From assembly GCA_033763575.1 (NCBI GenBank), contig JANRKF010000010.1:13376-77375 (forward strand): 64,000 nucleotides of DNA, in the 5' to 3' direction. Shown here in pieces: positions 23,394 through 29,913 of this stretch. The translations under genes and the position numbers were made by a program. The DNA is from Alphaproteobacteria bacterium. GTDB taxonomy: Bacteria; Pseudomonadota; Alphaproteobacteria; Rickettsiales; SXRF01. Every line of letters starts with the position of its first letter. The first letter of the stretch is position 1. The notes under the pieces are model-generated. The model was not told the origin of the DNA. It did not search any database and saw nothing but the letters and a program-made list of their open reading frames with translations.

Positions 23394-23511
23394 CCAATTC
23401 GTTAGGCTGTGGCAATAAGCGATGTTTTTGAGAACCGTAGCGCAGCGTACATTAAGTACGCGAGCAACGGAAGCGCAGAAAAGGAAGCGCTTGCCCAGCC
23501 AAACAAATTGG
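23394..23511. repeat. RPE-like palindromic element, copy 3
   Basis: Arms ccaattcgttaggctg / cagccaaacaaattgg; core gagaaccgtagcgcagcgtacattaagtacgcgagcaacggaagcgca. Confidence 0.82.
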
Positions 23512-26324: not shown

Positions 26325-26419
26325 AAAAAAACAATGGTACGGATTAAAGACGGATTTTTATAACGTTTGAAATTGAATAAAGCAATGTCTGTCACCTGCC
26401 ACCTGCCTCCTGCGCCCTT
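26284..26419. repeat. heptamer-arm inverted repeat bracketing the trpS/hemB divergent spacer
   Basis: Arms 26284-26321 and 26385-26419 share 27/28 nt (cacctg[t/c]cacctgcctcctgcgccctt). Confidence 0.88.
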
Positions 26420-27392
26420 CCCTTTGACCCGGCTGCGCCGCCTGCGCCAGGCGCCATGGATCCGTGAGCTTGCCGCCGAAACGCGCCTGCACCCGTCGGA
26501 TCTCATTTTGCCCATTTTTGTGACCGAGGGTGAGAATCGCACCGACCCGGTGGCGAGCATGCCCGGCGTGGCGCGCCTGTCGCTCGATTTACTGGCGGCG
26601 CGGGCGAAGGAAGCGCAGTCACTCGGCATCCCGGCCATCGCGCTGTTCCCCCATGTCGAGGCGGGCAAGAAAACCCCGCTGGGCGAGGAGGCGCTGAACC
26701 CCGATAATCTCGTCTGCCGCGCCATCAAGACCCTGAAAAACGCCGTGCCGGAAATCGGCGTGATTGCCGATGTCGCGCTCGACCCCTACACCTCCCACGG
26801 CCATGACGGCATCATCGAAAATGGTGATGTGGCGAACGACGCCACCGCCGAAATCCTCTGCCAGCAAGCCTTGCTCCACGCCGAAGCCGGGTGCGACATC
26901 ATCGCCCCCAGCGATATGATGGACGGGCGCATCGGCGCCATCCGCACGGCGCTTGAGGTGAGCGGCTATACCGGCACCATGATCCTCTCCTACGCCGCGA
27001 AATATGCCTCGGCGATGTACGGCCCGTTCCGCGACGGGGTGGGCAGCAGCAGCGCGCTCGGCAAGGCCGATAAACGCACCTACCAAATGAACCCGGCAAA
27101 TGCGGATGAGGCGATGCGCGAGATCGCCATGGATATTGCCGAGGGCGCCGACATGGTGATGGTGAAGCCCGGCCTGCCCTATCTGGATGTGATCCGGCGG
27201 GCGGCGGGCGCGTTCGATGTGCCGGTGCTGGCCTATCAGGTGAGCGGGGAATATGCGATGATACAGGCCGCAGCAGCAAATGGCTGGGTCGATGGCCCGG
27301 CGGTCATGCACGAGCAGCTCCTTGCCCTCAAACGCGCCGGCGCCCGCGCCATCCTCACCTACGCCGCGGTGGAGGTGGCGAAAACAATCTGA
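26385..27392 (+). CDS. hemB: porphobilinogen synthase
   Basis: RLRRLR, ALDPYTSHGHDG, APSDMMDGR, SY.AKYAS..YGPFR, MVKP, YQVSGEY. Confidence 0.97.
   Translation: MSVTCHLPPAPFPLTRLRRLRQAPWIRELAAETRLHPSDLILPIFVTEGENRTDPVASMPGVARLSLDLLAARAKEAQSLGIPAIALFPHVEAGKKTPLGEEALNPDNLVCRAIKTLKNAVPEIGVIADVALDPYTSHGHDGIIENGDVANDATAEILCQQALLHAEAGCDIIAPSDMMDGRIGAIRTALEVSGYTGTMILSYAAKYASAMYGPFRDGVGSSSALGKADKRTYQMNPANADEAMREIAMDIAEGADMVMVKPGLPYLDVIRRAAGAFDVPVLAYQVSGEYAMIQAAAANGWVDGPAVMHEQLLALKRAGARAILTYAAVEVAKTI
27334..27383 (+). repeat. 50-bp direct repeat, left copy (hemB 3' end)
   Basis: 48/50 identical to 28011-28060. Confidence 0.92.
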
Positions 27393-27406
27393 TTGCAATT
27401 TCTAAT

Positions 27407-27422
27407 TATTGTAGCTACAATA
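27407..27422. promoter_or_regulatory. palindromic operator upstream of brnT
   Basis: tattgtagctacaata, perfect 16-bp palindrome 1 nt before the ATG. Confidence 0.65.
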
Positions 27423-27423
27423 T

Positions 27424-27702
27424 ATGGACATAGAAATTATTTTTGACCCCAATAAAGATCGCCGCAATATCGATAAGCACGGCATCAGCCTGTCCAGTAT
27501 CGTTGATATTGATTGGCCGCTTGCGGTAACGCGGGAAGATGACAGAGTGGATTATGGTGAACACCGCTACCGTATATTTGCACCGCTGGATGGAATTTTG
27601 CATACGGCTGTCGTCGTATGGAGGAAAGGGACGATGCGAGGCATAAGTTTGCGGCAAGCGAATAAAAAAGAAAGAAAATGGTATGAAGAAGAAATCGGCT
27701 AA
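27424..27702 (+). CDS. BrnT-family toxin
   Basis: FDPNKDRRNIDKHGISL, DDRVDYGEHR, R.ISLRQANKKERKWY. Confidence 0.9.
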   Translation: MDIEIIFDPNKDRRNIDKHGISLSSIVDIDWPLAVTREDDRVDYGEHRYRIFAPLDGILHTAVVVWRKGTMRGISLRQANKKERKWYEEEIG

Positions 27703-27985
27703 AAAACGTATTGCGCCCACCCGGCCAGACAAGGAAAATCCTGAATGGACACGCGAGGATTTTCGCCGCGCCCGCCCGGCGGTCGAGGTGTTCACCGAGC
27801 TGATGGGACGCGAGGCGGCAGAAGCCTTCGTCTATAAAAAACGTGGACGCCCACCGAAGCCGCAAACCAAAAAACTGGTCTCCATGCGGCTTGACAGCGA
27901 AGTGATCGACGCCTTCCGTGCGCGTGGTGCTGGCTGGCAGACGCAGATCAATGACGTGCTGCGCGAATGGGTCGAGACACATTGA
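27683..27985 (+). CDS. BrnA-family antitoxin
   Basis: ENPEWT, RGRPP...K..VSMRLDSEVIDAFRA.G.GWQTQINDVLR. Confidence 0.92.
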   Translation: MKKKSAKKRIAPTRPDKENPEWTREDFRRARPAVEVFTELMGREAAEAFVYKKRGRPPKPQTKKLVSMRLDSEVIDAFRARGAGWQTQINDVLREWVETH

Positions 27986-28010
27986 CAATCCTTTCCCATC
28001 AGTGCGTGGA

Positions 28011-28072
28011 GCGCCGGCGCCCTCGCCATCCTCACCTACGCGGCGGTGGAGGTGGCGAAATCACTAACTTGA
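28011..28072 (+). pseudogene. orphan duplicate of the hemB C-terminus (right copy of the direct repeat)
   Basis: Reads AGALAILTYAAVEVAKSLT* versus hemB AGARAILTYAAVEVAKTI*. Confidence 0.85.
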
Positions 28073-28079
28073 CAAAATA

Positions 28080-28094
28080 TTAAACATTTTTTAA
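28080..28094 (+). promoter_or_regulatory. perfect CtrA consensus box
   Basis: TTAA-acatttt-TTAA, 10 nt above TATAGT. Confidence 0.62.
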
Positions 28095-28126
28095 TATTTT
28101 GACCTATAGTGAAAGGAGTGGGCACA

Positions 28127-29200
28127 ATGACTCTTAGGGATAAGCCGCTAAACCGCAGGGAAGCACTACGGCTTGCAGTATTTGGCGCCAACACGCTCAA
28201 TACGGCAGCCAATGCGTTGAACGCACCCGGCGCACCGCCAGCTGCGGTTATTCCTCCTGAAATACTTGAGAACGCAAGAATTGGCCTGCTGCACCGGCTC
28301 GGCGCGGCGTTCCTGCCGTTTAGCAAAGCTGCTTCCTGGTATCAACTCAACACTGTTGAGCCGATAACGACCTTTACCCGTCTCCTCAGTTATTCATTTC
28401 ACTTCGATAATACACAAACCCCTACCTATGTTCAAAGACCGTATAGAGACAGTCTCGAAGCCTCATATCAAACGGTTGGGGGGAAAGGTGCGGCGGTAGA
28501 AGAGCTGCTGGCGGAATATCACCGCTTGTTCCACGAATACCCCACGTGGGGTGAGCTGGTCGAATATATACCGAAGGGTGATGGTGTATCGCGCATCGGG
28601 AGCCATGTAGACCGCAAAAGCCGAATGCAGCCGGGTGAGCTGGTGCAAGCGGTTATCGATGAAAACCTGCCCCCGGATAAATTCAACGACAGGTATCTTA
28701 CACCCTCCAGGCACGCGGAGAATTTACTTTATGCAGAATCACTCGATAATATTATTGAGAAATTAACCGCGATCATCTCGAACAAAAACCTCGCGCTTAC
28801 GACCAGCGAGCGCCTCGCCATACTGAAAGCAGAGATGCTGCATCTTATTAAAGAATGTGCAAATGAGTTGGGGCTTGTCGGCCATGAGGATCATCCCCGC
28901 GTAGCCGAACGGGTGAACGAAAGGCTGCTGCCCCATCTGCACGCAACCCATCCGGAAATCCTGCCCGCCACTTTATCTCCCATTACGCTCGCCGCCGCGG
29001 GGACAGCCGCTATCGTCGCAGCCGCCGGGGTGGAAACAACGCCCGCAGACGCCGCACCAAGCGATACCCCTGCCGCCCTCCCCGCAGCACCCAAAGCGAT
29101 CGAACACACCCCCACAGAAACGGTCGCGAATGTATTAGGCACAGCACCGGCAGTAGAACCAGTGCCCGTGGTGATTGCCAAACAACAAAATAGGCGATAA
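28127..29200 (+). CDS. orphan hypothetical protein, possible twin-arginine leader, Ala/Pro-rich tail
   Basis: RBS aaggag 8 nt before ATG 28127; LNRREALRLAVFG. Confidence 0.75.
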   Translation: MTLRDKPLNRREALRLAVFGANTLNTAANALNAPGAPPAAVIPPEILENARIGLLHRLGAAFLPFSKAASWYQLNTVEPITTFTRLLSYSFHFDNTQTPTYVQRPYRDSLEASYQTVGGKGAAVEELLAEYHRLFHEYPTWGELVEYIPKGDGVSRIGSHVDRKSRMQPGELVQAVIDENLPPDKFNDRYLTPSRHAENLLYAESLDNIIEKLTAIISNKNLALTTSERLAILKAEMLHLIKECANELGLVGHEDHPRVAERVNERLLPHLHATHPEILPATLSPITLAAAGTAAIVAAAGVETTPADAAPSDTPAALPAAPKAIEHTPTETVANVLGTAPAVEPVPVVIAKQQNRR

Positions 29201-29220: not shown

Positions 29221-29340
29221 AAACTCGCTCTGTTGAGATTAAGAGCGAAGTTTTTGAGAACCGTAGCGCAGCGTACATTAGGGTACGTGAGCAACGGAAG
29301 CGCAAAAAACAAAGCGGCTTAATCCAACAGAGTAGAGTTT
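29221..29340. repeat. RPE-like palindromic element, copy 4
   Basis: Arms aaactcgctctgttgagattaag / cttaatccaacagagtagagttt; core nearly identical to copy 3; abuts the ubiX ATG. Confidence 0.85.
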
Positions 29341-29913
29341 ATGAGCATCATCATCGGCATTTCCGGCGCGAGCGGCGCGATTTACGGCGTGGAGCTTTTG
29401 AAAGCGCTCCGCGCCCTCAAAGTCGAAACCCACCTGATCGTGAGCAAAACCGCGCAGATCACGCTGGCGCATGAAACGCCCTATTCCCTCGCCGAGGTGC
29501 AGAAACTCGCCACCCATTTCCACAAAAACGATGACCTCGCCGCCTGCACCTCCAGCGGCTCGCACAAAACGGCGGGGATGATTATCGCGCCTTGTTCCAT
29601 GCGTTCATTGGCGGAAATTGCCACCGGCGTGACCAGCAACCTCCTCACCCGCAGCGCCGACGTGTGCCTGAAAGAACGCCGCAAGCTGGTGCTGATGGTG
29701 CGCGAAACGCCGCTGCACAGCATCCATTTGCGCAACATGCTCACGCTATCGGACATGGGGGCGGTGATCGCGCCGCCGGTGCCGGCCTTTTACAGCAAAC
29801 CCAAGAATATTGACGAGATGGTGAAATATACCGTGGCGAGGATTTTGGATAATTTTGACCTCGACGCCGGGAAGATTGCCCGCTGGCAGGGCCTCTCCGT
29901 AAAAAATCGGTGA
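29341..29913 (+). CDS. ubiX: flavin prenyltransferase
   Basis: GISGASG, SSGS, IAPCSMRSLA, RSADVCLKERRKLVLMVRETP. Confidence 0.96.
   Translation: MSIIIGISGASGAIYGVELLKALRALKVETHLIVSKTAQITLAHETPYSLAEVQKLATHFHKNDDLAACTSSGSHKTAGMIIAPCSMRSLAEIATGVTSNLLTRSADVCLKERRKLVLMVRETPLHSIHLRNMLTLSDMGAVIAPPVPAFYSKPKNIDEMVKYTVARILDNFDLDAGKIARWQGLSVKNR

Follow-up and report, generated by a model that had tools for sequence, protein, structure and literature searches.

Here we describe a toxin-antitoxin (TA) cassette, brnT-brnA (brnTA), which lies between hemB and ubiX and is bracketed by two copies of the hemB 3' end, in a 64,000-nt stretch of DNA (hereafter the window) of the 106-kb contig C10 (JANRKF010000010.1). 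The contig belongs to a metagenome-assembled genome (MAG) of an uncultured alphaproteobacterium, comprising 1.94 Mb in 35 contigs at 92% completeness, whose own assembly is denoted G000. Homologues were sought in a set of 44 genomes of the same family, whose members carry the labels Rickettsiales or Alphaproteobacteria bacterium, and in a collection of 5.8 billion proteins, while local direct repeats were sought genome-wide by self-BLAST of the whole assembly. The relatives' genomes and loci are given as G- and L-numbers (G001, G002, G014, L009-L052, L135, L136) where they have to be told apart.

In the window, trpS on the minus strand is followed by hemB on the plus strand, on which all further features of the locus are also found. 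The hemB gene (porphobilinogen synthase; 26367..27392) is intact and full-length, with matches to PF00490 (E=1.5e-135) and NF006762 (E=1.4e-147); its start is likely the ATG at 26385, the database protein P0001 beginning with MSVTCH, and its product ends in AVEVAKTI. The end of the gene occurs a second time further downstream. Positions 27334-27386 and 28011-28063 form a direct repeat of 53 nt, identical at 50 of the 53 positions and offset by 677 nt, which self-BLAST scores as 48/50 and which, inside 3.5 kb, is far above chance expectation. According to the alignment and codon comparison, the left, gene-attached copy (27334..27386) is the genuine hemB end, translated as ...AGARAILTYAAVEVAKTI before the stop codon, while the right, displaced copy (28011..28072; 62 nt) consists of the repeat plus its own tail and stop. 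This second end stays in the hemB frame, reading ...AGALAILTYAAVEVAKSLT (...AKSLT) up to a stop codon at 28070-28072, and the tails of the two copies are unlike in both length and sequence (...ACAATCTGA vs ...TCACTAACTTGA). An initial annotation of this DNA had described direct repeats around a unit holding only an operator, a toxin and an antitoxin, a right copy closing with its own in-frame stop, and a replacement of the gene end. All three hold for the 677-nt unit, as the hemB end now in use adjoins the cassette and the older one has been pushed downstream. No third copy of the hemB-end repeat was found in the assembly. An interpretation of the Arg-to-Leu difference in the right copy as decay of an invariant residue was dropped, since relatives carry R, S, A, T or Q at this position.

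Between the two hemB copies lie solely a promoter/palindrome region, brnT and brnA. The control region (27393..27423), delimited by sequence inspection, contains TTGCAA-17-TACAAT (27393-27421), a promoter-like site with which the palindrome TTGTAGCTACAA (27409-27420) overlaps. The palindrome is a putative operator that is conserved, together with its surroundings, upstream of brnT in the L024 and L026 orthologues of the cassette, and through which BrnA probably represses its own promoter. The brnT start codon begins 2 nt past the -10 box. BrnT (92 aa; 27424..27702) is a toxin of the RelE-fold ribonuclease family (PF04365, E=1.4e-18; PDB 7vd7_A, 'toxin', E=1.8e-6), with residues 7-83 aligning to positions 1-77 of the 77-position profile, i.e. 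a full-length match. The antitoxin gene brnA (100 aa; 27683..27985) overlaps brnT by 20 nt on the same strand and its product matches PF14384 (BrnA_antitoxin, DUF4415; E=7.9e-26), with homologues at 74-81% identity. The brnT-brnA unit is, as far as the two genes tell, an ordinary type II TA pair, and TA activity would be expected of it.

The BrnT/BrnA type II TA system is defined by Pfam PF04365/PF14384, and is represented by BrnTA of Brucella abortus. The cassette shares with it the full-length Pfam domains, the toxin-first order, the overlapping genes and the palindrome in the promoter region. It differs from the known system in lacking a Shine-Dalgarno sequence ahead of brnT and in a BrnT just 35-55% identical even to those occupying the same slot in relatives. 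BrnA itself has very few close homologues. The closest one (81%; L023:1800-2233) is found in a different context, adjoining relB/parE and hisH/hisA, where brnT is reduced to its 3' part, and this brnA is apparently an orphan antitoxin.

Downstream of the displaced hemB end lies a lineage-specific ORFan with its own promoter-like site (28069..29200). This strong TTGACA-17-TAATAT (28069-28097), whose -35 box overlaps the stop of the displaced hemB fossil, is followed by a ribosome-binding site (GAAAGGAG) and an ORF of 357 aa (28127-29200) with a Tat-like RR N-terminus (...NRREALRLAVFGA...) and an Ala/Pro-rich C-terminus. Searches with the ORFan protein gave no Pfam match, nor did they retrieve a homologue from the 44 family genomes or the protein collection; a hemB-ORFan-ubiX haplotype, sought via such homologues, was likewise not found. 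The stretch that separates the ORFan from ubiX contains one of at least eight copies in the assembly of a dispersed 66-nt repeat (GTTTTTGAGAACCGTAGCGCAGCGTACATTA...; 29244-29309), another being at 23418-23482. The next gene is ubiX (flavin prenyltransferase; 29341..29913; PF02441, E=3.3e-47), the ancestral direct 3' neighbour of hemB. Before and across the ubiX ATG lies a third and oldest hemB vestige of 11 nt, AGAGTTTATGA (29334..29344), which is identical to the hemB-stop/ubiX-start junction of L051 and equals the last codons, (K)SL plus stop, of an ancestral hemB overlapping the ubiX start. The K, S and L codons are synonymously recoded between the vestige (AAG AGT TTA) and the 62-nt fossil (AAA TCA CTA). 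The vestige thus shows an apparent entry of the ORFan into an empty-type hemB/ubiX junction.

Comparison with relatives revealed that this slot is variable within the family. It is empty in G002, G001, L050-L052, L009, L014 and L018, is occupied by brnTA in L024 and L026, and holds brnTA plus the ORFan in the window. In L009, L014, L018, L050-L052 and G002, ubiX comes immediately behind hemB or overlaps with it: in G002, L050 and L051 the stop of hemB runs into the start of ubiX (ATGA, within ...TTATGA... or ...CTATGA...), the two genes are 2 nt apart in L052, and hemB of L051 ends in AKSL with the junction AGAGTTTATGA. The initial annotation had staked its insertion claim on empty-site hemB alleles in relatives, ending in KSLT, and empty sites are present in G002, L050, L051 and L052. 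The empty relatives are close to the source genome, G002 belonging to the same genus (amino acid identity of 88% for trpS and 94% for ubiX) and L050/L051 reaching 85-86% for trpS and 88-91% for ubiX.

The order hemB-brnT-brnA-ubiX was found in L024 (the same as G014 and CAYOOP010000001; BrnA identity 77-78%) and in L026-L028 (BrnA 74%), and in neither of these orthologous cassettes is the hemB repeat present. When L026 is compared with G002, which carries the sister hemB allele, the insertion maps precisely to the stop/start overlap. In both brnTA relatives a new ubiX start codon lies inside the brnA 3' end (L024:4288-4306 and L026:1651-1669; ...GAATGGGT...), giving a 19-nt brnA/ubiX overlap; the corresponding ATG in the window opens merely a 38-codon frame across the hemB fossil. 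Among 80 fetched, more distant metagenome BrnA loci, none adjoins hemB or ubiX. The identity among the BrnT proteins of the three slot-mates stays below that of their HemB proteins (65-68%), which argues that the cassettes are old residents of the slot in diverged lineages and not recent copies of one active element.

The cassette is without mobility machinery of its own. Tyrosine recombinases (PF00589) number zero on contig C10, the four of the assembly being on other contigs, in a search that did not extend to DDE transposases and serine recombinases. The absence of an integrase or insertion sequence (IS) from the locus, as initially annotated, stands insofar as no integrase lies close by and the list of ORFs showed nothing IS-like, with the profile search covering tyrosine recombinases only. 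By contrast, the proposals made with it on how the unit moves find no support in the comparative data. Against an att-like site speak the cassettes of L024 and L026, which lack the repeat, the missing attP candidate, and copies that differ in the way diverged functional alleles do. A self-mobile minimal TA unit targeting a coding gene would need space for recombination sites, for which only the 25 nt between the brnA stop and the right copy are available here, at a brnA-ubiX distance of zero or less in relatives, and at a comparable locus (atpG, below) the displaced copy is the native allele. Finally, a remnant of a larger island is not supported, given that in two other lineages this slot contains nothing but the same two genes. 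The 50/53 repeats might in principle recombine and so excise the cassette, leaving a hybrid hemB end, and a working TA pair would be expected to select against such a loss of the cassette. An integron gene cassette was considered and rejected: the unit has no attC at its 3' end, where 25 nt are available here and where brnA overlaps ubiX in L024 and L026. At the brnTA locus we found neither attC, integron nor terminator features, and no suitable inverted repeat.

The same architecture recurs elsewhere in the genome, as at least five other loci in the assembly carry small cargo bracketed by a duplicated housekeeping-gene end, with no recombinase between the repeats. The first lies on the same contig upstream of the window (C10:450-1218), where HigB (PF05015) and an antitoxin with a helix-turn-helix (HTH) domain follow the 3' end of a class-II DAHP synthase gene between copies of a perfect 42-nt repeat; each copy terminates at a separate stop (...LKKA and ...LKKH), synonymous recoding affects the codons just upstream (AGC/TCG, CAA/CAG), and no HigBA cassette was found in the DAHP synthase slot of the 44 family genomes. 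At a second locus, between atpA and atpG (C26:40225-40859), a toxin-antitoxin-like pair of DUF4258 and DUF2283 proteins is placed at the atpG 5' end, with the first 19 atpG codons duplicated. Here, five of six discriminating codons in the displaced copy agree with those of the nearest relative, G002, which indicates that this copy is native and that the gene-attached copy arrived with the cargo. At a third locus (C30:3169-3860), an ORF of 140 aa with no Pfam match occupies the 3' end of the gene for ETF-ubiquinone oxidoreductase (ETF-QO), within a 103-nt repeat of which both copies end in TGA. The remaining two cargoes are GIY-YIG genes (PF01541), one at the 5' end of an lpdA(-like) gene (C24:134758-135215) and the other at the start of another gene (C15:39200-39633), in both cases with a repeat of 36-45 nt derived from the start of the adjacent gene. 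Both GIY-YIG genes are flanked on each side by short GC hairpins, GTCAT(T/C)CC...GG(A/G)AT. Repeat lengths (36-103 nt) and positions vary at every analogous locus. A further repeat-bracketed gene, encoding a 348-aa RelA_SpoT protein (PF04607) within a 67-nt repeat of 98.5% identity (C24:151019-152471), has an integrase gene about 900 nt away (C24:153348-153860) and may be a classical integrase-made islet.

To what extent the two copies of such repeats behave like alleles can be read from their codons, and the comparison covered five coding repeats, namely hemB and four analogous loci. Pooled, 20 of the 26 differing codons are synonymous and 6 are non-synonymous, serine switches between AGC and TCN included, and no copy contains a frameshift or an internal stop. 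By locus, the synonymous and non-synonymous differences amount to 1 and 2 for hemB, 2 and 3 for DAHP synthase, 8 and 1 for ETF-QO, 3 and 0 for lpdA, and 6 and 0 for atpG. The pooled ratio departs both from neutral decay, with 25% synonymous differences expected (binomial P=4e-8), and from a situation with one copy constrained and the other free, with 40% expected (binomial P=1.4e-4). As the differences are mostly synonymous and the frames intact, both copies appear to have been shaped within working genes, that is, as two alleles, one resident and one imported. The repeats would therefore represent donor and resident alleles, neither att sites nor replicative target duplications.

Taken together, the cassette was most likely imported by host recombination from a relative, along with that relative's hemB end. 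We consider it probable, if far from certain, that this took place by homology-anchored import with terminal displacement, either through homology-facilitated illegitimate recombination (HFIR) or through a single crossover. Donor DNA from a relative already carrying hemB-brnT-brnA-ubiX would have entered the cell and paired with the resident chromosome via the conserved hemB 3' end (about 55 nt), whereupon the far end of the donor would have been joined illegitimately 62 nt ahead of the resident hemB stop, at the joint 28010/28011. One possible route would be HFIR of a linear fragment, another a circularised fragment and one homologous crossover, duplicating the shared segment; HFIR and single-crossover integration that duplicates the homologous segment have both been described (PMC3240628). 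In either case, the donor hemB end would complete the essential gene, and the resident end would be displaced downstream as an in-frame fossil. A candidate donor arrangement, with the cargo adjoining the same anchor gene, exists in L024/G014 and L026-L028. The 25-nt spacer behind brnA (27986..28010) could then have arisen as filler where the illegitimate joint was made, or as a decayed scrap of the donor ubiX 5' end. A likeness of the peptide MGRDTLTI to the ubiX N-termini of L024 and L026, first taken as a sign of such a scrap, is imposed by the brnA frame; the spacer beyond the brnA stop we keep as a weak hint.

As to polarity, the right copy is probably the resident hemB end that predates the arrival of brnTA, its GCG alanine codon and leucine tail fitting the empty-site L050/L051 better than those of the left copy do. 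The left copy would be of the donor type, by analogy with atpG and from the tail comparison with L050/L051. At hemB, the polarity is read from just two or three sites of little information, and these point to the right copy as the resident one. The order of events at the junction would thus begin with a hemB ending in ...KSL and overlapping ubiX. The ORFan would then have been imported with a hemB end ...KSLT, probably by the same kind of event, leaving the 11-nt fossil fused to the ubiX start, and brnTA would have been imported last, with the hemB end ...KTI. Sequential displacement leaving 3' fossils has been proposed for effector-immunity arrays of type VI secretion systems (T6SS) and for Rhs loci (PMC5361080).

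Several observations weigh against this import. No same-species empty or donor haplotype was found, the BrnA, HemB and ORFan proteins of the window each occurring on one contig only, and the best hemB match outside the source genome has 76% identity. The hemB repeat taken alone, with its 1 synonymous and 2 non-synonymous codons plus a divergent tail, is uninformative, and at ETF-QO the comparison of the repeat with G002 gives an LLL/RR pattern, which is suggestive of a single crossover, compatible with chance and hence ambiguous. The resemblance of the 25-nt spacer to ubiX 5' ends in local alignment is weak (shuffle p=0.014-0.04, uncorrected for six targets). Moreover, no significant recombination breakpoint was detected within the window hemB relative to L050/L051 (max-chi2 permutation p=0.27), and, as regards DNA uptake, a search of the 92%-complete MAG detected DprA but no ComEC Pfam domain. 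A mosaic hemB with a donor-derived 3' part, considered at one stage, was dropped, since the trio with L050/L051 is star-like (114/100/100 sites) and the breakpoint test gave no support.

The closest rival reverses the direction of the event. In this unlikely scenario, brnTA would be the resident, and the newcomer, coming from a close relative, would consist of the 62 nt of hemB, the ORFan and the 5' part of ubiX, anchored in ubiX and joined illegitimately after brnA, which yields an identical final structure. The weak resemblance of the 25 nt past brnA to ubiX 5' ends is in keeping with it, as is the brnTA slot common to two other lineages, and an ORFan haplotype must, according to the 11-nt vestige, have existed alone. 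However, G002, L050 and L051, which trpS and ubiX identify as the nearest relatives, are all empty, and the brnTA carriers are more distant; in addition, the repeat-bracketed unit is the cargo elsewhere in this genome, and at atpG it is the gene-attached copy that is foreign.

Import along a homologous anchor must also be weighed against true insertion that duplicates a long piece of the target, in which some mechanism would copy about 55-60 nt of target and the copies would diverge afterwards. Such duplications have been proposed for restriction-modification (RM) genes (Nobusato et al. 2000, Gene 259:99; Furuta, Abe & Kobayashi 2010, PMC2853133), and the locus has the features by which Furuta et al. 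(PMC2853133) recognise them, namely a repeat above 30 bp, an insert below 20 kb, the lack of mobility genes, and a relative whose site is empty. The likeness extends further, as both concern a small addiction-type unit without mobility genes between locus-specific direct repeats longer than 30 bp that align once with the empty site of a relative, and as the Haemophilus influenzae repeats likewise overlap the 3' end of a gene (PMC2853133). Some of the analogous repeats in the present genome are, in addition, 100% identical. Against this, the cargo at hemB consists of a type II TA pair instead of an RM system, and the copies resemble diverged alleles and not a duplicated target. The strongly synonymous pooled differences and the open frames of both copies are not predicted by duplication in situ followed by decay, the tails of the hemB copies differ, and the displaced atpG copy is the native allele, all of which makes a target duplication decidedly improbable.

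Still harder to maintain is site-specific integration, by which brnTA would be a cis-mobilisable (CIME-like) remnant using the hemB 3' end as att, with the integrase supplied in trans. The geometry does match integration at a gene 3' end with replacement of the gene end, and the assembly, at 92% completeness, has two non-Xer-sized integrases elsewhere. Yet there is no tyrosine-recombinase integrase on the 106-kb contig and no third hemB-end copy, so that an attP candidate is missing; the orthologous cassettes of L024 and L026 lack the repeat, and repeat lengths and positions differ among the loci of this genome. Furthermore, the cargoes are packed stop-to-start, which leaves arm sites no room, and we regard this explanation as very improbable. 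An assembly artefact, i.e. a chimera of two coexisting strains whose haplotypes carry brnTA and the ORFan, respectively, is conceivable for a MAG in 35 contigs but hardly credible here, because the joint of the brnA flank with the right copy is in neither hypothetical haplotype and hence offers no shared k-mer path, because the repeat is just 53 nt with three differing sites, and because six independent loci on different contigs share the architecture.

The homology-anchored import that we favour would belong to an already known kind of recombinase-free gene traffic, to which the present genome adds the recurrence at several core-gene ends of one small genome and the allele-like repeats. HFIR and single-crossover events (de Vries & Wackernagel 2002; Prudhomme et al. 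2002; Amarir-Bouhram et al. 2011, PMC3240628) likewise combine one homologous anchor, here the hemB end, with one illegitimate joint and no dedicated recombinase. In contrast, those experiments used selectable markers, while the event at hemB is deduced from one natural product, with a short anchor of about 55 nt and in a genome where the ComEC domain was undetected. Terminal displacement at Rhs, contact-dependent inhibition (CDI) and T6SS effector-immunity loci (Jackson et al. 2009; Kirchberger et al. 2017, PMC5361080) is similar in that serial imports push older ends downstream, as seen at hemB with an intact end, a 62-nt and an 11-nt fossil. It differs in that the anchor here is an essential metabolic gene, that the anchor protein carries no variable fusion and that the cargo is located behind the stop codon. 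The minimal mobile elements of Neisseria (Saunders & Snyder 2002; the concept is used in PMC1797815) also present one syntenic slot with alternative cassettes or none, corresponding to the empty, brnTA and ORFan states found here, and no mobility genes. Homologous recombination in the genes on either side is given as the cause of their exchange (PMC1797815), whereas a clean double crossover leaves no duplication and one side is imprecise here.

The hemB genealogy bears on the same question. In the hemB tree, G002 (L016/L136) is sister to L026, and G001 (L135) is sister to L024, with support values of 100/99 each. This conflicts with the trees of both flanking genes, trpS and ubiX, which put G002 closest to the window, and is reflected in the identity between the window and G002, which is 69% for HemB compared with 94% for UbiX. 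Judging from these trees, hemB appears to have been exchanged among lineages of the family, and its genealogy fits a recombination-prone locus.

For genome analysis, the comparison of synonymous differences offers a simple way to separate two alleles from a target duplication in cargo flanked by long repeats. The case also calls for caution in annotation, as in-frame gene-end fragments behind TA cassettes are not att sites, and in phylogeny, as core genes beside such slots, here hemB, may mislead. The displaced ends are fossils that record the order of insertions, and the hemB/ubiX junction holds three such layers. The locus further illustrates a way for TA modules without a recombinase of their own to spread and to be maintained where the genome is small and classical mobile elements are few, relying only on host recombination and an essential neighbour's conserved end. 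More speculatively, and with considerable doubt on our part, small cassettes of a selfish or defensive nature (TA pairs, GIY-YIG genes and ORFans) might, in this uncultured alphaproteobacterial lineage, travel between relatives on the ends of essential genes, which would provide both the anchor and selection for an intact gene, while the TA pair would guard its allele against repeat-mediated deletion, so that a recombinase-free mobilome would drive the replacement of core-gene alleles. If true, such cassette-driven allele replacement would explain the discordant hemB genealogy in this family and would leave datable fossils at gene ends.

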